Part shown: one piece after another, positions 1 through 14,737 of the stretch | Numbering within the stretch: the first letter of the stretch is position 1 | Layout: each line of letters begins with the position of its first letter | Assembly: GCA_934168325.1 (NCBI GenBank) | Contig: CAKPNG010000002.1 | Coordinates: forward strand, 11-64,010 | Origin: an uncultured Bacilli bacterium | Lineage (GTDB): Bacteria > Bacillota_I > Bacilli_A > RFN20 > CAG-826 | DNA: 64,000 bases | Direction of reading: 5' to 3' | Position numbers and translations under genes: made by a program | The notes under the pieces: generated by a model | The model's database searches: none | Seen by the model: the letters and a program-made list of their open reading frames with translations, nothing else | What the model was told of the DNA's origin: nothing

Positions 1-77
1 GAAAAAGTATTTGATAAAATACAATAAAATACAACTTTTTCAATTACAAACTGTCAAACTCAGGATTTTAGTCTAAA

Positions 78-752
78 TTAGAGCCAATTTAAAGTAGTAA
101 ATAAAAATTGTTTTAATGTATCAACTACTGCTTCATTTAATAATTGATAAGATTTCTTTTTATTTGGTTCAACATCATCTTTATGATTATGTTGTTTCTT
201 TTTATATATTTTACGAAGACAATCCCACATTTCAGGGCCTTCAATTAAATTTAATCTTTCACGATAATTTTTCATATCTTTTCGTATAGCCCATTCATAA
301 TCTTCATTATTCGCGTTATTAGTGTTTTTTTTATTATAAAGAATATAAAAATTGTCATCATCATCATAAGTTGTGATAATGATATCAAATCCATATCCTT
401 TATTATTGTTTTTTGTAGTCAATGCTTGCGTACTATCTTCACAAAAACTAAATCCTTTTGGTTTGAATTTATCAAATGCGTTTCTAAATATATCTTTAAT
501 TTTTTTACAATCTTTATTCCAATTATAATTACTAGGTATCGATTGCATTACAATTTGAAAATCTAAATCAAAATAATCTTCATTACATTTTCTAATAACC
601 ATGTTTCTACTTCCGGTACCTATAGTAGAATATGAGAATGTAATTTTATAATTCTTTTTTATATATTTTTGAACACTGCCGATCCAATTATTAAATGTTT
701 CTCTGGGACCAATTAATTCCTTTTTATTTACGTAATCACACACAAATATCAA
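78..752 (-). CDS. Minimal nucleotidyltransferase-fold (Pol-beta/MNT-like) protein, downstream partner of the Abi2/HEPN gene
   Basis: 224-aa ORF. It carries the hG[GS]-x13-DxD pattern IGTGSRNMVIRKCNEDYFDLDF (G45-S48, D62, D64; nt 561-620) and a third acidic strand GFDIIIT (D123). Its ATG overlaps the stop of the upstream ORF by 4 nt (749-752). Confidence 0.55.
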   Translation of the reverse strand: MIFVCDYVNKKELIGPRETFNNWIGSVQKYIKKNYKITFSYSTIGTGSRNMVIRKCNEDYFDLDFQIVMQSIPSNYNWNKDCKKIKDIFRNAFDKFKPKGFSFCEDSTQALTTKNNNKGYGFDIIITTYDDDDNFYILYNKKNTNNANNEDYEWAIRKDMKNYRERLNLIEGPEMWDCLRKIYKKKQHNHKDDVEPNKKKSYQLLNEAVVDTLKQFLFTTLNWL

Positions 753-1441
753 TCCTCCTTATATAATAAGAACTTATAATAAGTACTAGCTATATTATCT
801 TTCGTCTTTTTGTTTAGCACTTTAAGATTATTTAGACATCTATCTTTATAATCAGTTGGTAGCATATCAACTAATGCATCTATTCCTTTTAATGTTTCTT
901 CCACTGTTGATTCAAAATTAAAATCAAATAATAGTGGCGAATGATGCATAACTCTATTTCTTAAAGTTACGATTGTGTCTAACTTATCGGTATCATAATT
1001 ATGAGAAACATATTCTTTAACAAATGACACCAAATCACCAAAATTTAAAGCAAACATCTTGTAAAAATTAGTTATTTCATCAACAGGATTATTCTTTATT
1101 ACACATTTAGGTAATCCCTTAAAATAATGGTATTCAGTTTTCTTTAATTCAACATCTGGATCAAAATCAAATCTTAATAAAATATCATTTCTAATATATT
1201 CTTCTAACGTTCCTAAATATTTGAATAATACATCTTTTATTGCTTTATCAAGGATAATAAATGAATTGACATCGCTAAACTTAACATTAGAATCAACCTC
1301 ATTCAAAGTTTCAAAAATAATTCTATATTGTTGAACACCTCGAATTTTAGAATACTTTTCAAATGTTCGTTTATTATCATTATTAAGTTTTTCAATAAAC
1401 TCCTTAAATTCCATATTTTCCTCCAATGTATCAAGTTGCAC
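749..1441 (-). CDS. Abi_2 (AbiD/AbiF-like) HEPN-domain abortive-infection protein
   Basis: 230-aa ORF. TLRNRVMHHSPLL contains the HEPN Rx4H motif (R161, H166; nt 944-961) in the position typical of Abi_2 proteins (LRNxxAH). It is translationally coupled to the NTase ORF. Confidence 0.6.
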   Translation of the reverse strand: MQLDTLEENMEFKEFIEKLNNDNKRTFEKYSKIRGVQQYRIIFETLNEVDSNVKFSDVNSFIILDKAIKDVLFKYLGTLEEYIRNDILLRFDFDPDVELKKTEYHYFKGLPKCVIKNNPVDEITNFYKMFALNFGDLVSFVKEYVSHNYDTDKLDTIVTLRNRVMHHSPLLFDFNFESTVEETLKGIDALVDMLPTDYKDRCLNNLKVLNKKTKDNIASTYYKFLLYKED

Positions 1442-1531
1442 TCAAATGACAACTTTTAGAAAGTTTCCGTAAGCTATTGAATTATTCATCCATTTTAAGG
1501 CAACAATAACTTCAGTTATTAACACTTCTTA

Positions 1532-2512
1532 TTACGACTGTATGTTCTTAGATGCGGGTAATAAAATAAATGGTTTCATTTTTAAAAGCTTAACTAATTC
1601 ATTTAACCAAATATTAATTTTATCTCTATTATCTTTCTTAGAAATCATTTTTAAAAAGGTATTATATTTATTTTTTAGCGTTGGTCCATCCATTTCTGAA
1701 ATTGCAGTTTTAATTATATCAAACGAACAAAAAGAATTATTATCATTAAGCTCATATATAGTTTTTGTCTCAAAATCATTAATCTTAATATCTTTTCTAG
1801 AACAACGAAGTCTTATTTCAGATGATAATAATACCAAAGGCAATTCATTATTATTTATTGGTGTTACCTCTTTTACCAATTCATCATTAACACAAATTTC
1901 TTCTTTTATTAAATTTGAACCAGTTTCTATATCTTTTATTCCAAGATTTTCGCATGATGAATCACTTGAATATGTCGAAATAAATTTAATATTATTCATA
2001 GACATATAATAAACAATACCAAATACCTCAGATAATAATGATTCTGGAATATTATTAATTGTAACCTTACGATTCCATAATTTTAATTGTTCAAAAGAAT
2101 ATAAAGCCCAATAATTATATAAATTAATTGCAAAATATAATTTATAGCCATTTTTATTAGCCCAATCAACTCTACTTTCAAAATTCCCGTTTGATATGCA
2201 ATATTCTTCTTTAGTTGTTGACTTAATCTCAACCATTATTTTTTCATCATTTTTTAATATAATGATTGCATCACATGACTTTTCTCCAACATTCGAAGTA
2301 AATTCCTCATCTATTGGAATAATTTCTTTGCATGCATTACATATATATAAATTACCGATAAATTCATATTCACGCTCAAGGCCTTTTATTCTTTCCTCAA
2401 AATTATTAGAATCAACACCTAATCCAGTTAAAATGTTATTAAATTGTTCCGATGTTATTTCTTCTTTAAGTGCTTTCAAGGTTTTAATTAATTCTATGCT
2501 TGGTTCATTCAT
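1532..2512 (-). CDS. Uncharacterised protein with a PD-(D/E)xK nuclease-like motif
   Basis: 326-aa ORF. SD AGGAG lies 9 nt upstream of the ATG. CDAIIILKNDEKIMVEIKST gives D81-x13-E95-x-K97, preceded by acidic residues (EREYE). Confidence 0.4.
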   Translation of the reverse strand: MNEPSIELIKTLKALKEEITSEQFNNILTGLGVDSNNFEERIKGLEREYEFIGNLYICNACKEIIPIDEEFTSNVGEKSCDAIIILKNDEKIMVEIKSTTKEEYCISNGNFESRVDWANKNGYKLYFAINLYNYWALYSFEQLKLWNRKVTINNIPESLLSEVFGIVYYMSMNNIKFISTYSSDSSCENLGIKDIETGSNLIKEEICVNDELVKEVTPINNNELPLVLLSSEIRLRCSRKDIKINDFETKTIYELNDNNSFCSFDIIKTAISEMDGPTLKNKYNTFLKMISKKDNRDKINIWLNELVKLLKMKPFILLPASKNIQS

Positions 2513-2538
2513 TATGCCACACTCCTACTTTTTATTTT

Positions 2539-3061
2539 TTATTTAAGATTTAATGTAATTGTAACAGCATCTTCTTCGCCTAATAACTCAACTAATTCAG
2601 TTTTAGTTAAATTAATATGACCTAATTTAGTATAAGACCATGTATTAGATCCATAAAAATACTATTTGGTTAGATTGATATAGACATATATCTCCAGCAT
2701 TAGTTGTAATACTACTATCATTGGATTTAATAGTGCTCCCTAATGAACCAAACTGTTCAAATCCACCATATTGATGGAGTTCTATTGTTAATCCATCTTT
2801 AGCAAGTTTCTTTAATTCTTTAACTGAATCATTATCCATCCAATAAACATCAACATCGCTACTATCTAGGGTTAAAACCAATGTTTTAGATAAATATGAT
2901 TCATCTTCTTTAGGTTCATCACTAGGTGATGTATTATCAGAAAGAATTATTGTTGGTGAGATATCATTGGTTGGTGGTGTTGAAGAATTATCATTTTTGC
3001 CACAAGCTGACAACGAGAAGACTAATATTAAAGTTACTAGTAATGTTATTAGTTTTTTCAT
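2539..3061 (-). pseudogene. Cyclophilin-like-domain lipoprotein, frameshifted in a T5 run near the 3' end
   Basis: It has its own SD (AGGTGA 5 nt before the ATG at 3061) and a lipobox signal MKKLITLLVTLILVFSLSAC. The ORF stops at 2645 after ...YQSNQIVFLWI. The +1 frame continues as FYGSNTWSYTKLGHINLTKTELVELLGEEDAVTITLNLK* down to 2539, which restores the conserved C-terminus of this domain family. Confidence 0.6.
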
Positions 3062-3976
3062 ATATTCACCTAATGAGACTTTTTTAAATCCTTTTTTAGT
3101 ATCCGCATCAAAACCTATCTTCCAAAAATCCATATCAAGCATTTTCATTTGAGGATAAGGCAATCCTTCAACACACATTTTAACTCTTGTCTCCTCTAAT
3201 TTACTATAATTAGATTCATAAAAATCAACTAACGCTAATATTGATTTAGTATTAAATCTTTTTATGCCTATATTTTCTCCCGATAATCCATCTTTGAAAT
3301 ATCTATCATATGCTGGGCAGCATCCTAGAACACCCATTAATGCCTTTGTTACTAGTGCTTCAGAAACATCCTGTAATATTTCTTCTTCCTTTACTTCTTT
3401 TCTAATCTTGTCATAATAATTAGCGATAAAATCAACTAGTTCGAATAAAAGATTCATAGTATCTTTATTCTTATATTGAAAACATTCAATTCCAAATAAA
3501 ATGTCATATTTGTGATTTAGAACTTCTTTTATGATAGGAATACGAATTCTATAATCCTTCTGCAATAAAAATGATGATCGTCTATACATTCCCCAACTTG
3601 CTAAATAGAAAGATAAATGTAAACTTAAATAATTATAGTCTGGATTATCATTTTTTCTTGCATCATGAAACACTTTATAATTATGCTCCCAAGAGCGAAA
3701 CCTTTCGTATTCATAAACTCTTAATTCATTATAAAAATCAGTTGATGCTGTTATTATTTTTTCTATAGTCTCAGGATTGTAAGTTTTTCTATTTAAAGCA
3801 TCATTATCTATGTTTAATGAAGCCTCTTTACCGTTTAAAATTGAATTTATTTTTCGTTCTAAATCATTGGTGATTCTATTTTTGAACATATTATCAGTCC
3901 AACCATAATCTCGAAGAAATCTTCTACAAATTTCTTTTCTATTATCAATAGGAAGTCCATCAATTCTTGCAATCAT
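3062..3976 (-). CDS. Uncharacterised protein (about 305 aa) whose frame runs without a stop into the lipoprotein gene
   Basis: This is the N-terminal part of the 443-aa ORF 2645..3976. It contains the motif LSFYLASWGMYRRSSFLLQKDY. I recognise no family and there is no stop before the lipoprotein ATG at 3061. Confidence 0.4.
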
Positions 3977-4041
3977 AGGCCCGCCTGTGTATGGATTTCT
4001 AGAAATATAGATTCAATTTCATCAACTATAAACTTATTCAT
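3974..4041 (-). CDS. 22-aa mini-ORF (MNKFIVDEIESIFLEIHTQAGL) whose stop overlaps the ATG of the next gene
   Basis: A strong SD (GGAGG, 4048-4052) lies 6 nt before the ATG at 4041. Its TGA overlaps the ATG at 3976 (ATGA). The downstream gene has no clear SD of its own. Confidence 0.25.
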
Positions 4042-4050
4042 AGAAACCTC

Positions 4051-5196
4051 CTATTCTTCAAGCAATTTTATAAATAAAGTAAATCTAGCTTCGATAAAAA
4101 GTGGATTAGTCTTCTTAAACATCATATGAGACACATTATCAGTTACAGTCATTAAATCTGCAAAAGTTTTTAATGTTTTAAAAGCTTCGCTGTTTTTATC
4201 TAATCCTGTAATAAAGGCAAATATAGCCATTTCGTCATTGTGACTCAAAAAATTATATAATCTTGCAACAAAGCCACAAATAACATCACAAATTTGTATC
4301 TCTCTACTAGTTTTTGAATCCAAGAAATGAACATCTAATTTATTTTCATAATCATCATCAAATTCACCCAATTGTTTAGTAATTGAAGCTTCATTATCAA
4401 AATATTTTTTGTCTTTAATTTCAATCATTCTTGAAAGATAATTAGAAAACACATCACTTGATATAACATATGGTTCATTATCTTCTAAAAAAATCAAATT
4501 TGATTTATCTCTTTTGGCTTTAATAATTTGTCTTAATAATTCTTTTGTAAAATTCTCAATATCATCTGGATCATACTTTTCATAATTATAAGCATATAAA
4601 TCTAATACATCTCTAATAAAATTATTTGCTTTATTCTTAGGGACATTTGGAAATTCATATTTTACTAATAACGCATGTAATTCATCATAATCTTGATATA
4701 AAACTTCCGTCATATAACTTTGAAGTTGTTTATAATACATAAGTGCAGCAAATTGATTTGCATCATTTTCTTCTATTAGAGAATCTAGAATATCAGTTAA
4801 CGCAAAGTGCATATAATGTAAAACATCAAAATGAATTAAAATATTGTTATTAAGAAGATATTCAAAAAACTTTCTCAATCTTGATTGATTAATTGCCTCT
4901 AAGAAATTATTATGCTTAAAAGCAAAGAAATTAAACTTAGCATCAATTGGGGTTTGTCTTGCTCCAACATATTTTAATAAATCATTAAAATCTAGTGTAT
5001 TTTTTATTGCAATCCCACCAAGAACAAAATATAAGTTTTCTAAGTCTGCATTATTGTCTTTATCATAGCCTATAATCCCTTTTTTTATATTATTGCTCTC
5101 ATCAAAATAAAAAATGTGGTTTATATGTAATGATGGAATATTCAGCTTTTCAATATTTTCTTTATATGAATTTATGAAATCATCTAATTTAGTCAT
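4051..5196 (-). CDS. DUF3800-like protein
   Basis: N-terminal HIFYFDESNN and C-terminal REIQICDVICGFV resemble the two conserved DUF3800 boxes (DESG ... QxaD). The start is taken at MTKLDDF (5196), which overlaps the upstream stop by 8 nt. Confidence 0.5.
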   Translation of the reverse strand: MTKLDDFINSYKENIEKLNIPSLHINHIFYFDESNNIKKGIIGYDKDNNADLENLYFVLGGIAIKNTLDFNDLLKYVGARQTPIDAKFNFFAFKHNNFLEAINQSRLRKFFEYLLNNNILIHFDVLHYMHFALTDILDSLIEENDANQFAALMYYKQLQSYMTEVLYQDYDELHALLVKYEFPNVPKNKANNFIRDVLDLYAYNYEKYDPDDIENFTKELLRQIIKAKRDKSNLIFLEDNEPYVISSDVFSNYLSRMIEIKDKKYFDNEASITKQLGEFDDDYENKLDVHFLDSKTSREIQICDVICGFVARLYNFLSHNDEMAIFAFITGLDKNSEAFKTLKTFADLMTVTDNVSHMMFKKTNPLFIEARFTLFIKLLEE

Positions 5197-6148
5197 TGAA
5201 AGAATCACCTCTTTCTTTAAGGCTAAACTCTTTATCACTTTCAGTAAGTTTAATAATTTCTATATTTTTTTCATTAGCTATTCTAAACAGCTCTTCGTAT
5301 TCATTAGATTTTGTATCAGCCTTACATCCTACATAAATCTTTATAATTTTAGTAGGCATTGTATATAGACTCAATTCTTCTAATTTAGAAACTCTATCAC
5401 TACTTGGGGATAAGATACATCTAACCACTACTTCATATTGCCAATCTAATGACTTAACAATAAATGGTTTAGATATACATCTTATTAGTCCTTTATCATT
5501 AACATCAGCTTCTTCGTTTGATAGCATATATCCAAGCACTCTTCTTGTAGTATCTTCTAAATCGAATTTGCATCTTTTCTTAGAATACTTAACATCAAGA
5601 AAATCCTTATCAGGTCTATCAAATTCAATACATATGCCTTTATGTTTGTCTCCATAATGTGACCACATTAGAATAGAATCAAATCGTTTACTAAAGCATG
5701 AAATTAAAGCGTTATTTCGCACTTCTTTTACTTTTTGAATAATTTCACTAGTAAATTTCTCTTTCAATTCATCAAAAGAATTTTCACCATTTTTAGCAGC
5801 ATATCTAACTATCCATCTAGTTAATGTTTGAGCGCCAGGAATAGAGTCATAATACTTATTCTTTTTTGATAATTTCAAATTAAGATTAATACCGAATCTA
5901 TCCCACTTCATAATAAGCTTTGTTAAAAAGCTAACTTTAATATTCTTATTATTTAACAACTTCAAAAATTCTTGAATTAAATAGTACTCAACTATTATAG
6001 AAATTGATTTTTCAATATCGGTATCATCAAAATCTATAACACTATCAAAAGGATCATTATAGTTTTGTGGGCTATTAAGTGCAACAGCATTACTTTCTAA
6101 TATCTTAATTGCACTTTTTAATGATGTATACTTGTATATTTTTTCCAC
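5189..6148 (-). CDS. DUF2971-like protein
   Basis: KIYKYTSLKSAIKILESNAVALNSPQNYNDPFDS and ISCFSKRFDSILMWSHYGDKHKGICIEF match the characteristic DUF2971 boxes. It has a GTG start with SD AAAGGAG. Confidence 0.6.
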   Translation of the reverse strand: MEKIYKYTSLKSAIKILESNAVALNSPQNYNDPFDSVIDFDDTDIEKSISIIVEYYLIQEFLKLLNNKNIKVSFLTKLIMKWDRFGINLNLKLSKKNKYYDSIPGAQTLTRWIVRYAAKNGENSFDELKEKFTSEIIQKVKEVRNNALISCFSKRFDSILMWSHYGDKHKGICIEFDRPDKDFLDVKYSKKRCKFDLEDTTRRVLGYMLSNEEADVNDKGLIRCISKPFIVKSLDWQYEVVVRCILSPSSDRVSKLEELSLYTMPTKIIKIYVGCKADTKSNEYEELFRIANEKNIEIIKLTESDKEFSLKERGDSFND

Positions 6149-6287
6149 ACTAAATGACTCCTTTCTTTTGTTTTGGAATTATTTTAATCATTTCTCTATA
6201 AAATTAACAAAAAAAGAAATAAAAACTTTTCACATATTGTATCACAATTCCATTATAACTTCCTCTATTTAGAAGAAAAAACTTACT

Positions 6288-6307
6288 ATAATTGTTATTA
6301 TGAGAAG
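6288..6307 (+). repeat. 20-nt inverted repeat IR-A (ATAATTGTTATTATGAGAAG), 5' boundary of TRD1
   Basis: Exact reverse complement of 10739-10758. Both copies are in the same codon phase (N-C-Y-Y-E-K). Confidence 0.85.
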
Positions 6308-6763
6308 GTTGGCCAGATCATCAAAATAATAGATAATAAAAAGATGCCTATATCTCATAATATTAAAAACAGATCATTTCAAAAATTATCATTTCTATCA
6401 ACATCATCTATGGGACAAACAATATTGTCATCAGATTTAGATATTGAAGGAATCCCCGTTTATAGCGCTACTATGGATGATTCTCCGTTTGGTTACATAA
6501 AAGAAACAAAAAATAAAATGTATCTTACTAAAGGAGATATAGTAATTCCTGCTAGAGGTAATTCGATAGGATATGTAACTTATATTAATGATAGTTTGGC
6601 AACATGTACTCAGACTACAATTGCATTGTATCCAATTACTAAAGTTATTAGTAAATTTGTATACTATTATTTTAAAGCATATAAAGACTACTTGTTTGAA
6701 TATATTGGTGGAGCAATTCCACAAATTACATTAAAAATGATAAATGAAATTATAGTTCCGCTC

Positions 6764-7078
6764 CCACCTCTTCAAGAACAAGAACGAATAGTTAATAAAA
6801 TTGATAAATTATTTGAATTAGTCGATAAAATAGAAAAGGATCAGCAAGAACTTGAAGAACTAAAGAAACAAGCTAAGGATAAGGTCTTAGAGCTTGCTGT
6901 TACTGGTAAACTAGTTAAACAAGACCCTAACGATGAACCTGCTTCAGTCCTTCTAGAACGTATTAAAGCTGAGAAAGAAAAGCTTATTAAAGAAGGAAAA
7001 ATCAAGATAGAAAAGGCTGATTTAGAACCAATTTCTGATGATGATAAAAATTATTATGAGAATATACCATCTAATTGG
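6764..7078 (+). repeat. 315-bp perfect inverted repeat IR-B (hsdS central conserved region)
   Basis: I compared it segment by segment with the reverse complement of 9971-10285 and found them identical. It encodes PPLQEQERIVNKIDKL...DDDKNYYENIPSNW. Confidence 0.9.
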
Positions 7079-7556
7079 ATAGTTACTAGTCTAAATAGCA
7101 TATGTACAAAAATTGTTGATGGAAACCACAATCCACCAAAAGGATGTCAGCAAAAAACAGATTATTATATGTTGTCATCACAAAATATAGTAGACGGAAA
7201 TATTATTGAATTAAGTAAAGTTAGATTTTTAACCAAAGATCAATTCCTTGAAGAAAATAAAAGGACGAAGTTATCCATTAACGATATTTTATTTACAAGT
7301 GTTGGTTCAATAGGGCGCTCTTGCGTTTTTAACCATAATTATAATATATGTTTTCAAAGAAGCGTTTCTGTTATAACAACTTTAATTAATCCTTATTATG
7401 TAAAATTATTCTTCGATGCCCCAATGCAACAAGTATGGTTTACCAAAAAAGCATCTGGGACAGCTCAAAAGGGTTTTTATTTAAATCAATTAAGTAATCT
7501 ACTTATAGCTGTTCCACCAATATATGAACAATCCAAAATCGTAAAAAAATATAATA

Positions 7557-8052
7557 TTATAGCAAAGAATTTAACAACTTAAATTTGCGACAAATCCTTT
7601 CCTGTTCATCTAAATTTGGAATTGCGACAACTTCATTTAATAAGTCGTTTCTTTCTATTCCAGGTATCATGCTTTTAGCTTTTATTTGCAATTTATATAC
7701 CGTATTTAAAATTAACAAAACATTAAATTGAGTATTAATATAAGATGTAATTCCCATAATTTGTCTAGCAATATGTAAATCACCAATAGTATTTATTGCA
7801 ATTTTGCCGATGGTTCCTTTGCATGTAATTAATATATCATCAATATGAGAATTACAATACTTTATTTTTGTATATCTATTTACGATTAAATTATTGCTAG
7901 TAAAATTACTTGCTCCTGTCATATATGGAATGTCATCATCGCATCGAATACTATGATATTCGTTTGGAGTCAAATCATATCCTGATGTTAATCTTATTAC
8001 ATTTGATAATCTACAAACGCACCACGAACTATTAATGTTCTTATAATAATTT
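7557..8052 (-). other. Silent hsdS TRD2 half-cassette (no start codon or promoter)
   Basis: The frame is open from about 8095. It begins ...RNYYKNINSSW, which mimics the end of the central repeat (KNYYENIPSNW), and ends with an hsdS C-terminal helix (IPNLDEQERICRKFKLLNSLL). A 10-nt match AAATTATTAT lies at 8043-8052. Confidence 0.7.
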
Positions 8053-8096
8053 CTATAAGTAAATAATAGGCTCCATAATCGGAACCTATTTTCTTT

Positions 8097-8900
8097 TTAC
8101 CATGTGACGATTTTATCTACTATAGCTTGTTGTTCGCTTGCTGTTTTTCTTAAATATATTCTAGTTGTTTCAATAGATTCATGTCCCATTAAATCAGCCA
8201 GAAGAGCTATGTCATTATATTTTTCTAAGAAGTTTTTGGCAAAGCGATGTCTAAATGAATGAGGATAAACAACTTTAGGATCAATTCCATATTTCACTGC
8301 ATAATTTTTAAGTTGTTGTGATATTCCTCTTGTGGTGATTCTATCTCCAAATCGATTAAGAAAAATATATCCACTTTCTATATGAACTGTTTCATTTAGC
8401 CAAGTTGTGGTTTCTTTTCTTAAAGCTATTGGAATATAGATTCTTCTAATCTTTCCTCCTTTAGTATATAAATCTATAAAACCAAGATTTACATGTTCAA
8501 CTTTAATTTTAATAAGCTCACTAACTCTTGCTCCAGTAGCACATAAAAATCTTACAATAAAGTACCATTCTTTATTGTTTTCTTGTTTTAATTTCTTTTT
8601 GAAAAAAACGTAATCAGCATCACTAATTACGTTCTCAAGGAATGTTCTTTGTTGAACCTTAACTGATTTTATTCGCAGGTTCGGTTTCTTGATAAATTCC
8701 AAATATTTATTTATAGCCTGTAATTTTAAATTTACAGTTTTAGCTTTGAAATTCTCAATTAAGTATGCCTTCCATGCTAATAGATTCTTTTTTGTAAAAT
8801 CGTCATAGTTACTAATGTATCCTTTTACAGCAGTGATATAAGCAGATACGGTGTTTGGTGCCAAATTATTTGACACTAAAAATTTTTTAAATGCATCCAT
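8097..8900 (-). CDS. Tyrosine site-specific recombinase (XerC/D-like), candidate shufflon invertase
   Basis: ATGARVSELIKIK (Arg box), HSFRHRFA (HxxR) and LMGHESIETTRIYL (His/Tyr) are present. The start is taken at MDAFKK (8900), preceded by AAGGAGG. The 8945 start looks like an ORF-caller extension. Confidence 0.85.
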   Translation of the reverse strand: MDAFKKFLVSNNLAPNTVSAYITAVKGYISNYDDFTKKNLLAWKAYLIENFKAKTVNLKLQAINKYLEFIKKPNLRIKSVKVQQRTFLENVISDADYVFFKKKLKQENNKEWYFIVRFLCATGARVSELIKIKVEHVNLGFIDLYTKGGKIRRIYIPIALRKETTTWLNETVHIESGYIFLNRFGDRITTRGISQQLKNYAVKYGIDPKVVYPHSFRHRFAKNFLEKYNDIALLADLMGHESIETTRIYLRKTASEQQAIVDKIVTW

Positions 8901-8982
8901 AATTCGTCCTCCTTTTTGAATGGATAAATGAATTATAAAATACATTTGATTTGTTTATTTTTAAGTAACTACAATAACATAC

Positions 8983-8995
8983 AAAAATTATTATG
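8983..8995 (+). repeat. 13-nt inverted repeat IR-C (AAAAATTATTATG), 5' boundary of TRD2 cassettes
   Basis: Reverse complement of 9991-10003 (inside the expressed hsdS). The same sequence also occurs in direct form at 7046-7058. All copies share the same codon phase (K-N-Y-Y). Confidence 0.7.
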
Positions 8996-9516
8996 GGCAG
9001 TTACCGATTAACTGGGCATGGACCAACCTATCTTCTTTATCTAAATCAATTACGGATGGGACACATAAAACGCCAAAGTATTTAGATTCAGGAATACCTT
9101 TTTTGTCAATTGCGAATATTTCTTCTGGAAGTTTTGATAATTGCCCGAAATATATTTCACCTGATGAACATAATCAGCTAACTAAGAGGGCAAAACCTGA
9201 ATATGGCGATATTTTATTGTGTAGAATCGGAACTTTAGGTAAGCCATTTATTGTTAATATGACTTTTGATTTTAGTATCTTCGTAAGTCTTGCTCTAATA
9301 AAACCAATAGCTATCAAACAAAATGAATATTTAAAAATGGTATTGTCTTCTCCATTTATTAGTAACCATATCGATAGAATAAAAGTGGGTGGCGGAACAC
9401 ATACATATAAAATTAATCTTGATAATTTGTTAACATTTCCTATACCTCGTCCTCCACAAAAAGAACAAAATGAGATTATATCTAAAGTAACTGAATTAAT
9501 GAATTTACTTTATTGA
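8983..9516 (+). other. Silent hsdS TRD2 half-cassette (no start codon or promoter)
   Basis: The frame opens just after a TAA at about 8965. It begins KNYYGQLPINWAW...DGTHKTPKYLDSGIPFLS (a typical TRD start) and ends PPQKEQNEIISKVTELMNLLY. The 13-nt AAAAATTATTATG at 8983-8995 equals the end of the central repeat. Confidence 0.75.
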
Positions 9517-10948
9517 TAATTCTTTTTTGCTCATTTTCTGGTGCTATAGGTAATGCAAAATTATTAAATGCTTTTTGTGTCAACTGATTAATAGTAGTTG
9601 TTCCACTAGTTTTTTCAAGTTGATTATAATAATATTTTGTTTGCAAAAACAAATATATCCATTTTGAGTATTCAGATTTGCATATAGCCATAAAAGCACC
9701 AAAAGTCATCGGTTCATTGATATTTGAAACAAATGCTGATTTTCCTACTAGATGCTTACTGCCATTTCTAGCACATATTATAATATCATTATTATTAACA
9801 ACCAATTTGCTAGGAATTCGGCTATTCACTCGAATAACATCATTAAAATCAAGCTTGCCATTTTTTATATTACTCGAACGTAGTACAATTATACCATTAT
9901 CGCAAATATTATTAGGACTATATGTTAATCCAATGTATGAATCAGAAATACTTTGAATTTTTGCAATAGACCAATTAGATGGTATATTCTCATAATAATT
10001 TTTATCATCATCAGAAATTGGTTCTAAATCAGCCTTTTCTATCTTGATTTTTCCTTCTTTAATAAGCTTTTCTTTCTCAGCTTTAATACGTTCTAGAAGG
10101 ACTGAAGCAGGTTCATCGTTAGGGTCTTGTTTAACTAGTTTACCAGTAACAGCAAGCTCTAAGACCTTATCCTTAGCTTGTTTCTTTAGTTCTTCAAGTT
10201 CTTGCTGATCCTTTTCTATTTTATCGACTAATTCAAATAATTTATCAATTTTATTAACTATTCGTTCTTGTTCTTGAAGAGGTGGTATTAATATTGATAA
10301 AGACTTGAATTTAGATAAAGGTATACCACCTATTATGCCCTGCATATTATCTCTAAATTCGTTGTTAAAAGTTATGCTATTAAAGAAATAGTAAACAAAT
10401 TTTGATATCACTATAAAAGGGCTAACGCACGCCAATTTATTTACAAAGCATACATCTTTATTTATCAATCCGATTTTATTACCCGCATTTGCTCCTTCTA
10501 GGCAAATAAGAATAGAATTTTGTTTTGCCCTTTTTAGTGAATAATCCAATGGAATATAAAGACCATTCTCATAATTTATATTCCCATTTAAATCAATATC
10601 TTTTGTAGCAATATAATGATGAAAACTATCTAATTTAATTGATAAATCGATTTTTTGTTTATCATTAAGGCTATTACCAGTATATATATTGGAAAAATAT
10701 TGTAATTGAAGGCAAGACCATCCTGAAGGAATGTCATTCTTCTCATAATAACAATTATCGTCATCACTCCAATAGATATCCGATTCTTCTACTTTTGATA
10801 TTTTCTTCTCTTTTTCAAGTTTTTTTCTTTCTTCTCTTATTCTAGCTAAAAGTTCCTCAACTGGCTCATCGTTAGGATCCTGTGGAACCAATTTTCCACG
10901 CATAGCTAAATCAAGAATTTTTTGTTTTAATGCTTTAGTATCTATCAT
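9482..10948 (-). CDS. hsdS: Type I R-M specificity subunit HsdS (expressed copy)
   Basis: 488 aa with two TRDs separated by the conserved coiled-coil region. Its ATG overlaps the hsdM TGA (ATGA at 10945-10948). Confidence 0.9.
   Translation of the reverse strand: MIDTKALKQKILDLAMRGKLVPQDPNDEPVEELLARIREERKKLEKEKKISKVEESDIYWSDDDNCYYEKNDIPSGWSCLQLQYFSNIYTGNSLNDKQKIDLSIKLDSFHHYIATKDIDLNGNINYENGLYIPLDYSLKRAKQNSILICLEGANAGNKIGLINKDVCFVNKLACVSPFIVISKFVYYFFNSITFNNEFRDNMQGIIGGIPLSKFKSLSILIPPLQEQERIVNKIDKLFELVDKIEKDQQELEELKKQAKDKVLELAVTGKLVKQDPNDEPASVLLERIKAEKEKLIKEGKIKIEKADLEPISDDDKNYYENIPSNWSIAKIQSISDSYIGLTYSPNNICDNGIIVLRSSNIKNGKLDFNDVIRVNSRIPSKLVVNNNDIIICARNGSKHLVGKSAFVSNINEPMTFGAFMAICKSEYSKWIYLFLQTKYYYNQLEKTSGTTTINQLTQKAFNNFALPIAPENEQKRIINKVNSLIQLL
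9971..10285 (-). repeat. 315-bp inverted repeat IR-B, partner copy
   Basis: Exact reverse complement of 6764-7078. Confidence 0.9.
9991..10003 (-). repeat. 13-nt IR-C copy inside the expressed hsdS
   Basis: CATAATAATTTTT is the reverse complement of 8983-8995. Confidence 0.7.
10739..10758 (-). repeat. 20-nt IR-A copy inside the expressed hsdS
   Basis: CTTCTCATAATAACAATTAT is the reverse complement of 6288-6307. Confidence 0.85.
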
Positions 10949-12414
10949 TCTTCAATATCCTTAATTAATTCTTTTAATTGAGCCACTGAATCGCTGATAC
11001 TTTTTGATTTTTCTTCAATCATATCAACAAGTTGATGAAGTGTATAATCTTGCTTTTCTTCTTTAATATTTGGATTTTTAAAGTCAATATTATATGTTTC
11101 TTCAATCTTGTCTTGCTTTACAAAATAAGCATTTATATCGCCATTATCTCTATTATTCCACCATCCACGAACGCCTTTTAAATGTTCAGCTGTAAATGGT
11201 TTAGTTTTACTAAAGCTTCTATATCCTTCAGGAAGTGGTACTTGATAATACCAAATTCCATCAGTTTTTTCACCTTTATCAAAGAATAAAATATTTGTTG
11301 TAATACCTGCATAGAATAATCCAGCTGGAAGTTTTACTATTGTATGTAAATTGCATTCAGACATTAATTTTTTCTTGATGTTAACATAAGCATCATCTGT
11401 ATTAAATAGGAAACCATCTGGTAAAATGATGCCTACTCTACCATTTTTAGCAAGTCTATATAAAACTAGGCATACGAATAGATTGGCTGTCTCTGATGTT
11501 CTATATGATTCAGGAAAGTTCGCATCTTCTCCTGGAGCAATTTCTCCACCAAATGGAGGATTCATTAAAACAACATCAACTTTATCACTTTCAGTATATT
11601 CTGTGACATTCTTAGCTAATGATGATGCATATCTAATATTAGAACCATCTGTTCCATTTAATAACATATTTGTAACACACAATAAATATGGTAATGGTTT
11701 ACATTCACAACCAATTATATTATCTTGCATACTATCAAGAGCTTCTTGTGTATTATGTTTCTTTAGAATATGTTGAATTGCAGAAACTAAGAATCCACCA
11801 GTACCACAAGCAAAGTCTGCAATTTTTTCGCCTGGTTTTGGATCTAACATTTCTGCCATGAAATCAGTTACTGGTCTTGGGGTATAAAATTCTCCAGAAC
11901 TTCCTGCATTTTGTAATTCTTTAAGAATTGATTCATAAATATCATTAAATACATGTCTATCTTCATATTTATCAAAATCTATTTCATTTAATTCGTTAAT
12001 GACTTGTCTGATTAAAGTTCCATTAATCATATAATTATGAAGACGTGAAAATACATACTTTACAATAGCAGATCTTTTTGGAGTTGTTTCATCTACAGAC
12101 AAATCTCTTAAAGTGGGGAATAATTTATTATTGATAAAATCAACTAATTCGTCACCTGTTAAAGAATCACCTGTTGGTTTTCCTTCAGAATCAACTTTTT
12201 CAACTGCCCAATTACGCCATCTATATTCTTCTGGAATAATAGATTTATAGTTATCTATTTCAATTTCGTATTCATTACTTTCTTTTAATTCATCATATAC
12301 TTTTAAGAAAAGCATCCAAACAAGCTGATTGATACGTTGAGCATCTCCATCAACTCCATTGTCTTTTCGCATTATTTTTCTTACTCTTTTAACTAATCCA
12401 TTTAAATCTGCCAT
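10945..12414 (-). CDS. hsdM: Type I R-M N6-adenine DNA methyltransferase HsdM
   Basis: 489 aa with the NPPFGG catalytic motif (VVLMNPPFGG), the AdoMet motif DFACGTGGFL, and an HsdM N-terminal domain. Confidence 0.92.
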   Translation of the reverse strand: MADLNGLVKRVRKIMRKDNGVDGDAQRINQLVWMLFLKVYDELKESNEYEIEIDNYKSIIPEEYRWRNWAVEKVDSEGKPTGDSLTGDELVDFINNKLFPTLRDLSVDETTPKRSAIVKYVFSRLHNYMINGTLIRQVINELNEIDFDKYEDRHVFNDIYESILKELQNAGSSGEFYTPRPVTDFMAEMLDPKPGEKIADFACGTGGFLVSAIQHILKKHNTQEALDSMQDNIIGCECKPLPYLLCVTNMLLNGTDGSNIRYASSLAKNVTEYTESDKVDVVLMNPPFGGEIAPGEDANFPESYRTSETANLFVCLVLYRLAKNGRVGIILPDGFLFNTDDAYVNIKKKLMSECNLHTIVKLPAGLFYAGITTNILFFDKGEKTDGIWYYQVPLPEGYRSFSKTKPFTAEHLKGVRGWWNNRDNGDINAYFVKQDKIEETYNIDFKNPNIKEEKQDYTLHQLVDMIEEKSKSISDSVAQLKELIKDIEE

Positions 12415-12415
12415 A

Positions 12416-14737
12416 TTATGCTGCTCCTGCTACTGAATATAAATTGCTTTTTACAAATTGAACTGCTTGTAAATAGTTATCTCTACCGCCAAATATTTCC
12501 TTAATAATTTGTTTTGGTGTTCCAAATTCTTTAAATTCATCAAGTTTAAGAATATTAATGTCATCAACATCATCTATTCCTTCATCACAATATTTGTCTA
12601 ATAATCTATCAATTACTTCTCTAGCAATTCCTGTATATTTATCAAGAAGTTCAGACTTTTTAATGCTCTTTACTCTTTCGCTTCTTGTTAATGGTTTTGC
12701 TTCATATGCTATATAACATATTAAATCAAAATCATCCATATCTTCAACACCTAATTCTGCTCTAATTTGCTCTAGCAAAACTCCATGATAAACTAATTCA
12801 TCAACTATAGCTTTATGTTTTTTCTCACTAGTCCATTTTTGAATAAATTCATCTAAAGTTGCATACTGGTTTAAGATATTTTTCTTTGTGTAATTGATTA
12901 ATGATTGTTTTGTTAAATTACCATCAGGGTCTAAAATTGATACTTCTTCACCCATAATCGTGACTTTGTTTCCGTCAATATGATATACAGGATTTTGGCC
13001 TTCGCCTCCTCCTCCACCACTTGACCTGTGACCGTTATCATCCACATACTCAATTGGTCCATCCCACTTAGGATCAGCAAACAATCTTGTTACTTGTCTA
13101 AAATCAATTATAATAAATTCGTATTTTCTGTCAGCTTCTCTTAATCTAGTTCCACGACCAATAATTTGTTTAAATAAAGTCATAGATGATATTACTTTAT
13201 CTAATACTATTAATTTTGCTGTTTTACAATCCACACCTGTTGTCATCAAATCGGATGAAGTAACAATACATGGGTCAATATCCATATTAAATTCTGCTTT
13301 TGCGAAATCGGTTAAATCAGCTTGTGCTGTTGGAGAATCACCTGTAATTCTAGTTACATATCGAGGATTTTTTCTACAAATATCTAAATTAAGATTCCAC
13401 AACTCTTGTCTTAGTCTTTCGGCATGAACTATATTGCAACAGAAAACAATAGTTTTTTGGTATCTATCTGTTTCCTTTAAATAATTTGTTATTTGTTTAG
13501 CAACCTCTTTTGTTCTTGAATCAACTATCAATTTTTTATCAAAATCATTTGTAGTATAAATTCTGTCTTCTAATAAATTTCCGTGAATATCTAATTGACC
13601 AGGATATGGTCTATATCCTTTAACATCTATATCAAGGAATTTCTTCATAACTTTATATGGAGCTAGGAATCCATCTTCTATACCTTGTTTTAGAGAATAA
13701 ACATATACTGGTTCTCCAAAATATGTTTTAGCTAAATCAACTTCTTGTTCATCATCTTCATCATCTGTCTTCTTGCCTTTTAAATATACCTTTGGAGTTG
13801 CAGTCATACCAATTTGAATTGCGCTTTCAAACCAATCAAGTATTTCTCTCCAATGAGAGTCTTCTTTAGCACTTCCTCTATGACACTCATCAACAATGAT
13901 TAAATCAAAGAAATCTCTAGAAACTTGCTTAAAGGCTTCTAAGTTTGATTCTCCTTTTTCGTTATCTAATTGTTGATAAAGTCCAAAGAATATCTCATAA
14001 GAAGTATCTATTTTACCTTTTGTAATGATAGTTTTAGATGCACCAAAAGGAGCAAACTCTTCATTAAAAGGTTTGCCAATTAATACATTTCTATCAGCTA
14101 AATATAAAACTTTTTTAACTTTACGCATTTGTTTTAACTTCCAAACAATTTGGAATGCAGTATAGGTTTTACCTGTTCCTGTAGCCAAAACAATTAAAGC
14201 TCTACGTTTTCCATTAGCAATTGCTTCTAATGTTTTATCAACAGATGCCTTTTGATAATATCTAGGTCTAAAATCAGGATCAGTATAAAAAGGAAATTCA
14301 ATTAACTTCAATTGTTCTTCAGTTAAATTCTTTTCGTTAATATAACGTTCTCTTAATACTTCAGGTGATGGAAATTCAGCCATTGTCAAGTCTCTTTCAA
14401 GTCCGGTTATCAAATCATGTTCAACGAAACCATGACCATTTGAACTATACGCAAACGGAACATTTAAAAGTCTTGCATATTCTATTGCTTGAAGTAAACC
14501 TTGTCCAGGAGTATGATCTTCGTCTTTTGCTTCAACAATTGCCAAATTAGTATTATTAACATATCTTAATAAATAATCAGCATATTTTCTTTTTCCTCTA
14601 GTCATTACTCCATTTGATGAAACATGAACACGTCCATCAGTGAAATATTCCATGCGATAATTAGCCCAACCCGCTCTATCAATCGCAGGTGTTATATATA
14701 ATCTTTTTACATCTTCTTCAGAAAACTTTTCAGGCAT
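12416..14737 (-). CDS. hsdR: Type I restriction endonuclease/helicase subunit HsdR
   Basis: 773 aa with Walker A LATGTGKT, DEAH-type box VDECHRGS, and helicase motif VI QIIGRGTR. A 1-nt gap separates it from hsdM. Confidence 0.92.
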   Translation of the reverse strand: MPEKFSEEDVKRLYITPAIDRAGWANYRMEYFTDGRVHVSSNGVMTRGKRKYADYLLRYVNNTNLAIVEAKDEDHTPGQGLLQAIEYARLLNVPFAYSSNGHGFVEHDLITGLERDLTMAEFPSPEVLRERYINEKNLTEEQLKLIEFPFYTDPDFRPRYYQKASVDKTLEAIANGKRRALIVLATGTGKTYTAFQIVWKLKQMRKVKKVLYLADRNVLIGKPFNEEFAPFGASKTIITKGKIDTSYEIFFGLYQQLDNEKGESNLEAFKQVSRDFFDLIIVDECHRGSAKEDSHWREILDWFESAIQIGMTATPKVYLKGKKTDDEDDEQEVDLAKTYFGEPVYVYSLKQGIEDGFLAPYKVMKKFLDIDVKGYRPYPGQLDIHGNLLEDRIYTTNDFDKKLIVDSRTKEVAKQITNYLKETDRYQKTIVFCCNIVHAERLRQELWNLNLDICRKNPRYVTRITGDSPTAQADLTDFAKAEFNMDIDPCIVTSSDLMTTGVDCKTAKLIVLDKVISSMTLFKQIIGRGTRLREADRKYEFIIIDFRQVTRLFADPKWDGPIEYVDDNGHRSSGGGGGEGQNPVYHIDGNKVTIMGEEVSILDPDGNLTKQSLINYTKKNILNQYATLDEFIQKWTSEKKHKAIVDELVYHGVLLEQIRAELGVEDMDDFDLICYIAYEAKPLTRSERVKSIKKSELLDKYTGIAREVIDRLLDKYCDEGIDDVDDINILKLDEFKEFGTPKQIIKEIFGGRDNYLQAVQFVKSNLYSVAGAA

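Follow-up and report, generated by a model that had tools for sequence, protein, structure and literature searches.

Proteins of the DUF2971 family have been classed as ADP-ribosyltransferases (ARTs) related to DarT and AbiGi that share a conserved Tyr and an ExE motif (PMC12522546). One member, the 316-aa protein Aristaios, is a single-gene, abortive infection (Abi)-like system of a Lactococcus plasmid that protects alone, has an ART-like predicted fold and disturbs phage transcription (PMC11381338, PMC13064643). For DUF3800 proteins an RNase H-like fold has been claimed (PMC10910872, PMC7736814). These proteins have been found with type VII retrons, with Cas12a2/a3 (TPR-DUF3800; PMC13594972) and with Cas13-CASK (Csx32; 10.64898/2026.08.25.746378), and eleven non-coding RNA (ncRNA) motifs are associated with them (PMC5737381); their role in these links to ncRNAs, retron reverse transcriptases (RTs) and Cas12/Cas13 loci is undemonstrated (PMC5737381, PMC7736814, PMC10910872, 10.64898/2026.08.25.746378). 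Here we analyse a locus in which the two families meet, in a 64,000-nucleotide stretch of contig CAKPNG010000002.1 from an uncultured Bacilli bacterium (hereafter the window): gene A, encoding a DUF2971 protein, overlaps gene B, encoding a DUF3800 protein, beside a type I restriction-modification (R-M) locus.

A preliminary description of the locus suggested that A and B form a two-gene anti-phage or anti-plasmid module, built from families of no assigned function, that could not be matched to any named system. The view of the families is outdated, given the ART and RNase H-like predictions cited above, and both proteins have catalogued counterparts: A and B match PDC-S31 and PDC-S51, single-gene candidates of PADLOC-DB v2, over their full length and in a defence-island setting, and Aristaios lies within DUF2971. 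We consider it reasonably likely that A and B are two independent, co-transcribed single-gene anti-phage candidates stacked in a hot spot flanking the R-M locus. This reading is favoured because both proteins match single-gene models full length and the DUF2971 protein Aristaios protects alone; because A orthologues without B hold the same position and B homologues mostly lack A; and because the pair is confined to one clade, A is decaying next to an intact B, the synonymous divergence (dS) of the two genes is discordant and no fusions are found.

The two genes and their families

Both open reading frames (ORFs), of 319 and 381 codons as first described, lie on the minus strand, and their 8-nt overlap ATGACTAA is borne out by the sequence (Table 1), with the TAA stop of A at 5191-5189 and the ATG of B at 5196-5194. 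The longest ORF of B extends to a GTG start (4051..5238, 395 aa), and the homologues all start at the position of the ATG at 5196 (M[TS]KLDD), which gives 381 aa. Profile searches confirmed the two domains above their cut-offs. Gene A, which carries IYKYTS, NDPFD and MWSHYGDKHKGICIEF, scores 27.8 bits against Pfam DUF2971 (PF11185; gathering cut-off 22) and 120.5 bits against the PDC-S31 model PDLC04990 (2.5e-35, residues 2-311), and four further PDC-S31 models also match it. Gene B, which carries FYFDESNN and IQICDVICG, scores 35.3 bits against Pfam DUF3800 (PF12686; cut-off 21) over profile positions 1-148 of 149, and 205.4 bits against the PDC-S51 model PDLC05033 (2.9e-61, residues 9-378). 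We counted 1020 homologues of A and 125 of B, the B family comprising 503 representatives at 50% clustering. NCBIfam gave no informative match for either gene, and searches of PDB sequences with profiles of both families returned nothing relevant for A or B. Both genes are additions to catalogued families, of which DUF2971 already holds one validated member.

In PADLOC candidate names "S" stands for single-gene and "M" for multi-gene, and a PDC-M13C match in the same PADLOC output fits this convention. PADLOC lists PDC-S31 and PDC-S51 apart, whereas A and B are here overlapped and co-transcribed. Our literature search found no paper naming PDC-S31 or PDC-S51, and neither candidate was experimentally validated there.

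Gene A resembles Aristaios, encoded on the Lactococcus plasmid pUCCL641_199, in its DUF2971 domain, its size (319 versus 316 aa) and its single-domain layout (PMC11381338); the likeness is one of family, size, layout and weak structural matches to mono-ARTs, not of direct sequence alignment, and a plasmid collection searched with gene A yielded no Lactococcus match. In contrast to Aristaios, A is chromosomal, lies in a gut Bacilli/CAG:288-like genome, has a Val at the invariant position Glu241 and overlaps a DUF3800 gene downstream. Its AlphaFold2 model has a mean confidence (pLDDT) of 86, and the top seven Foldseek matches in the PDB are all the mono-ART CteC, at weak scores (E 0.3-1.5, TM-score <=0.3).

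The AlphaFold2 model of gene B (pLDDT 92.5, predicted TM-score 0.90) includes a large helical insertion of ~150 residues. Foldseek gave no PDB match at E <1, with human RNase H2 at rank 20 (E = 5), and no significant match in BFVD, where the best viral match was a phage DUF3800 protein. The order of secondary-structure elements is compatible with an RNase H-like arrangement: D32/E33 fall within strand 1, and D135/D138 and Q301/D304 each lie on the helix that follows a strand (120-127 and 289-292, respectively). Residues D32, E33, Q301 and D304 do not vary among 20 homologues, and B retains all family-invariant residues of the acidic set (D32, E33, D135, D138, E164, Q301, D304). An ART fold for A and an RNase H-like fold for B are thus each compatible with the protein's own model. 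The N-terminal D-E and C-terminal QxxD motifs of B recur in the DUF3800 proteins of type VII retrons, Cas12a2/a3 (TPR-DUF3800) and Cas13 CASK (Csx32) (PMC7736814, PMC10910872, PMC13594972), from which B, at ~380 aa, differs in standing alone, in its long helical insertion and in having no RT, Cas gene, TPR domain or kinase nearby. An Rfam scan of the whole window had no match at the gathering score, and one of 1-9000 at E <=5 gave only chance-level snoRNA hits. A DUF3800-associated ncRNA system (DUF3800-I to -XI, drum, skipping-rope) finds no support in these scans, which detected no structured RNA adjoining B.

The junction itself is informative on the origin of the overlap. It is identical in L001, L007, L009, L011, L017 and L036, and A proteins linked to B have 319 aa, whereas A orthologues without B have 313-315 aa and lack the tail. 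The extra C-terminal residues (..[KR]GDSFND / ..GGGFND) are encoded by the ribosome-binding site and start codon of B, which are housed in an extension of 6 codons; since both signals fall within this extension, the overlap is a by-product of the point at which the cassettes were joined. The whole array is tightly packed, with the stop of B 9 nt from the ATG of the next gene and intergenic gaps around B of <=9 nt, so that short spacing is the local norm. No terminator-like site occurs on the minus strand from A through B to the next gene, and the region presumed to hold the promoter of the array contains promoter-like matches at consensus level only (e.g. 6210-6181, minus strand). The 8-nt overlap places A and B on one transcript and makes translational coupling possible, but does not demonstrate functional dependence.

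In deep pairwise comparisons the ratio of nonsynonymous to synonymous substitutions (dN/dS) is 0.06-0.26 for A and B alike; both are under purifying selection and are real genes, not chance ORFs. In the recent comparison of the window with L001 the ratio is ~1 for both genes, on substitutions too few to interpret. GC content of the region (~26-29%) is similar to that of the remaining window.

Separate occurrence of the genes and lesions in gene A

Gene B was surveyed in 31 loci from genomes, metagenomes and viral contigs, plus further loci obtained by exact look-up; the scan of genome contigs contributed only 6 loci. The tallies of A and B presence were checked, and confirmed, by hmmsearch of six-frame ORFs in all loci. 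Wherever B is at least 70% identical to that of the window, A is the adjoining upstream gene and overlaps it in the same way (L001/7, L002, L003, L009, L010, L011, L017, L036/37), with the single exception of L004, which has no A. At that locus, in a metagenome-assembled genome of Christensenellales (L004:6572-8783), the B homologue is 92% identical over residues 121-381 and its 5' end is cut by an IS-type transposase gene; A is absent, but B is still followed by the same two genes, encoding a 324-aa protein and a lipoprotein. All pair-bearing B sequences form one monophyletic clade in the B tree, which indicates that the juxtaposition of A and B arose once.

Homologues of B at 36-67% identity are mostly without an adjacent A. 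Upstream of them we found serine recombinases (L015 and L031, the latter a viral contig), phage or integrative and conjugative element (ICE)-like genes (L012/21/24), hypothetical genes (L005, L018, L049) or AbiGi/AbiGii (L045-48). The distant DUF3800 genes of plasmids were solo in all four sampled, on conjugative plasmids near replication genes.

Gene A is likewise found by itself: orthologues of 313-315 aa, 66-86% identical, occur without B, and intact copies of this kind are present in hundreds of assemblies. In P0171 (82% identical; 381 index blocks) the order is hsdS-hsdR-YgjP-A followed by a 1514-aa protein that PADLOC identifies as TmtA of Tiamat (881 bits), and in P0176 (80% identical) A is followed by the same TmtA. 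In P0192 (66% identical) hsdM, an hsdS shufflon and an integrase are laid out as in the window, and A is then followed by two AAA_14/DUF4143 genes that PADLOC assigns to PDC-S01. An hmmsearch of these three loci detected no B anywhere. A-type genes adjoin type I R-M loci in five of six context types, and judging by this gene order A looks like a conserved anchor that marks the edge of a defence hot spot linked to R-M, behind which varied single-gene cassettes are placed, B being one of them.

Co-occurrence of A and B is therefore not obligate, A occurring without B at 66-86% identity and B without A at <=67% in most contexts. Of the two-gene module first proposed, the tight packing in a defence island next to a phase-variable type I R-M system is borne out and a defence role is plausible; the idea of an obligate pair does not stand, with each gene found without the other and A lesioned where B is intact. 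The suggested link across genomes holds for the overlapping pair of one clade, while the genes are apart in A orthologues at 66-86% and in most B homologues at <=67% identity. Divergence between the same pairs of genomes also differs from gene to gene (window versus L011, dS 1.18 for B and 0.36 for A; window versus L036, 0.51 for B and 0.60 for A), which indicates that A and B recombine independently. No DUF2971-DUF3800 fusion was found among 16 long (407-550 aa) DUF2971 homologues.

The copy of A in the window keeps motif I (the N-terminal YKY..NDPFD) and motif II (the central SCFS..MWSHY). Its ExE motif, a conserved-motif test for an active DUF2971 or Aristaios-type ART, is broken: position 241 is Glu in 110 of 110 full-length homologues and Val in the window copy only, a second alignment agreeing, and the exact V241 protein is present on 3 contigs in public assemblies. 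E241V is probably a catalytic knockout, so that the window A, a family member by descent, would be a dead enzyme. Lesions of other kinds are found among its relatives. Nearly all other members of its 90% cluster (relatives at >=94% identity) have S163L in the near-invariant MWSHYGD, the reference A of Clostridium sp. CAG:288 combines S163L with a nonsense codon at 274 and was seen on 10 contigs, the L010 copy has a frameshift, and some copies in the cluster (P0121, P0387-P0398; L001:183-1142) are cut to 273, 279 or 258 aa. Gene B is intact beside the window, S163L, nonsense and frameshift copies of A. This pattern suggests that in the species-level lineage of the window the ART-like gene has been repeatedly inactivated, or that its loss is tolerated.

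Independent genes or a joint system

If A and B are independent, they would be abortive-infection type candidates stacked head-to-tail and co-transcribed beside a phase-variable type I R-M locus. By family, A would be an ART-like toxin that, once triggered, blocks a step such as phage transcription, and that the change at the second Glu of ExE has probably left catalytically dead in the window. B would be an RNase H-like, metal-dependent nuclease whose helical insertion may serve in sensing or regulation; since it looks intact, B would be the likelier working gene of the pair. Several observations weigh against this reading. The clade with the overlap junction spans 70-98% identity in B and 67-96% in A while the downstream cassette varies: some loci have a 323-aa gene and a lipoprotein gene there, others PLD/DpnI-like and GmrSD genes. 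Other DUF2971 subfamilies lie upstream of B in two separate B lineages, at distances of 333 nt (L013/14) and ~1.1 kb (L051/52), and these proteins share ~23-25% identity with A and 29% with one another; a third B lineage is preceded by AbiGi, which is also classed as ART-like (PMC12522546). An ART-like gene thus stands upstream of B in ~3 of 16 contexts, a frequency that may exceed chance but is no more than a hint. Finally, the structural matches to the predicted folds of A and B fell short of significance.

The conserved junction and the upstream ART-like genes would also suit a genuine two-component module, in which an ART-like DUF2971 protein and a DUF3800 nuclease cooperate, one for instance sensing or marking nucleic acid that the other cleaves, with A possibly a non-catalytic partner in the lineage of the window. 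The overlap persists in a clade whose proteins diverge by up to 30% and whose flanks vary, separate lineages of the B subfamily have one of three unrelated DUF2971 subfamilies or AbiGi immediately upstream of B, most copies of A with S163L or E241V are still full-length, and the purifying selection in deep comparisons acts on both genes. Such a module is nonetheless unlikely, as A orthologues 80-82% identical and with intact motifs are very common without B, any DUF2971 is absent from most B lineages, and a separate TIR gene (PADLOC PDC-S35) stands between DUF2971 and B in L051/52; the discordant dS, the lack of fusions, and the nonsense codon and frameshift in A beside an intact B point the same way. 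A more specific proposal, that the ART-like DUF2971 and the ~380-aa DUF3800 subfamily are recurrent partners and that in the lineage of the window a full-length but dead A (E241V/S163L) senses for or gates the nuclease, so forming an undescribed two-component Abi system, strikes us as improbable.

A different kind of dependence would be that of a toxin-antitoxin-like pair, A being an ART toxin and B neutralising it or reversing its product. In darT-darG the ART gene comes first and its partner second, and the ART-first order and overlap of A and B recall this arrangement; repeated inactivation of A with retention of B is also the expected look of toxin loss. Like DarT-DarG and AbiGi-AbiGii, the window has an ART-like gene followed by a second gene in an operon, and a sequence relationship of DUF2971 to DarT and AbiGi has been reported (PMC12522546). 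However, A is neither DUF4433 nor AbiGi, and B is neither a macrodomain nor AbiGii nor any other known ADP-ribose hydrolase; identity with DarTG was dismissed, as Pfam and PADLOC scans detected neither DarT (DUF4433) nor the macrodomain of DarG in A or B. B is moreover mostly solo and far from any ART, Aristaios acts as a single gene (PMC11381338), and intact A orthologues are common without B and have unrelated followers (TmtA, PDC-S01). This pairing is largely rejected on the last of these grounds and we hold it to be very improbable. It is also rather doubtful that the genes lie outside defence altogether, A being an R-M-linked accessory and/or B serving plasmid or ICE maintenance or nucleic-acid processing. 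The adjacency of A-type genes to R-M loci, the association of B homologues with serine recombinases, a viral contig and the replication genes of conjugative plasmids, and the ties of DUF3800 to ncRNA, retron and Cas loci would suit such roles, but the genes around A and B homologues are overwhelmingly defence genes (Abi_2, GmrSD, PLD/DpnI-like, DUF4238, TIR, Tiamat, AbiG), an anti-phage phenotype has been measured for one DUF2971 protein (PMC11381338), and no Rfam ncRNA lies near B in the window.

Genomic neighbourhood and meaning of the locus

The type I R-M locus with its hsdS shufflon, correctly placed next to the pair in the preliminary description, is listed in Table 1 with the other features. 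The two full hsdS copies are identical over a central stretch of ~105 aa (LIPPLQEQERIV...ENIPSNW), presumably a recombination substrate.

Table 1. Coordinates of the gene pair, its signals and surrounding features in the window, and of related arrangements elsewhere
Feature	Position	Strand	Description
Gene A	5189..6148	minus	319-aa DUF2971 / PADLOC PDC-S31 protein, Aristaios-family, ART-like; GTG start
Gene B	4051..5196	minus	381-aa DUF3800 / PADLOC PDC-S51 protein; predicted RNase H-like nuclease
A/B overlap ATGACTAA	5189..5196	minus	8 nt; start codon of B and stop codon of A
Shine-Dalgarno sequence of gene B, GAGGTG	5206..5211	minus	9 nt 5' of the ATG of B; within the last codons of A (..KERGDSFND)
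Codon 241 of gene A	5426..5428	minus	GTG (Val); second Glu of W-x-Y-E-x-E-[VI]-R (ExE)
Intergenic region A/hsdS	6149..6343	.	195 bp, genes divergent; presumed promoter region of the array from A through B downstream
Type I R-M locus with hsdS shufflon	6344-14737		Complete
hsdS, full copies	6344-7582; 9482-10948	plus; minus	
hsdS, partial ORFs	7557-7973; 9103-9516	minus; plus	
Tyrosine recombinase	8097-8945	minus	Between hsdS copies
hsdM	10945-12414	minus	
hsdR	12416-14737	minus	
Hjc-like nuclease-domain protein	1532-2512	minus	Pfam Hjc 22.8 bits
Abi_2/AbiD-like protein	749-1441	minus	29.3 bits
224-aa ORF	78-752	minus	Weak oligonucleotide-cyclase/nucleotidyltransferase-like PADLOC match, E = 0.0011
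ART-like genes upstream of other B lineages	L013:4729-7137; L051:2969-6125; L045:3012-6149		Two DUF2971, one AbiGi/AbiGii

Genes of the DUF2971 (PDC-S31) type lie beside an hsdS shufflon, hsdR-YgjP or an HsdM_N fragment in L032-L035, L036-L037, L041-L042, L051-L052 and the window (5189-6344), and the cassettes behind DUF2971 are DUF3800, Tiamat TmtA, PDC-S01 and TIR PDC-S35. In L001 (2290-3794) the gene after B encodes 323 aa and stands apart from the next one, which encodes a 174-aa Cyclophilin_like2 lipoprotein; neither Pfam nor PADLOC gave a match for the 323-aa product. In the window (2645-4042) one nucleotide is missing near 4010 and one is added near 3085 (an A5 to A6 run), so that the gene is frameshifted and fused to the lipoprotein ORF in a 443-aa ORF (2645-3976); a further 2-nt deletion lies near 2659 in a T run. 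The indels reflect either true pseudogenisation or sequencing errors in homopolymers. The 224-aa ORF overlaps the Abi_2/AbiD-like gene by 4 nt; L001, L007 and L011 likewise have these two genes side by side, and the two may constitute a pair of their own.

The locus offers a natural example of how single-gene cassettes (DUF3800, Tiamat, PDC-S01) are exchanged behind a conserved DUF2971 "anchor" in defence hot spots that flank phase-variable type I R-M loci. It also illustrates that an overlap of start and stop codons can stem from the mere juxtaposition of cassettes, and calls for caution when systems are inferred from overlaps. The stand-alone DUF3800 subfamily (PDC-S51), as modelled here, would be a compact, well-folded candidate nuclease effector whose domain recurs with retrons, Cas12a2/a3 and Cas13, and an understanding of the stand-alone form could inform these other contexts of DUF3800.

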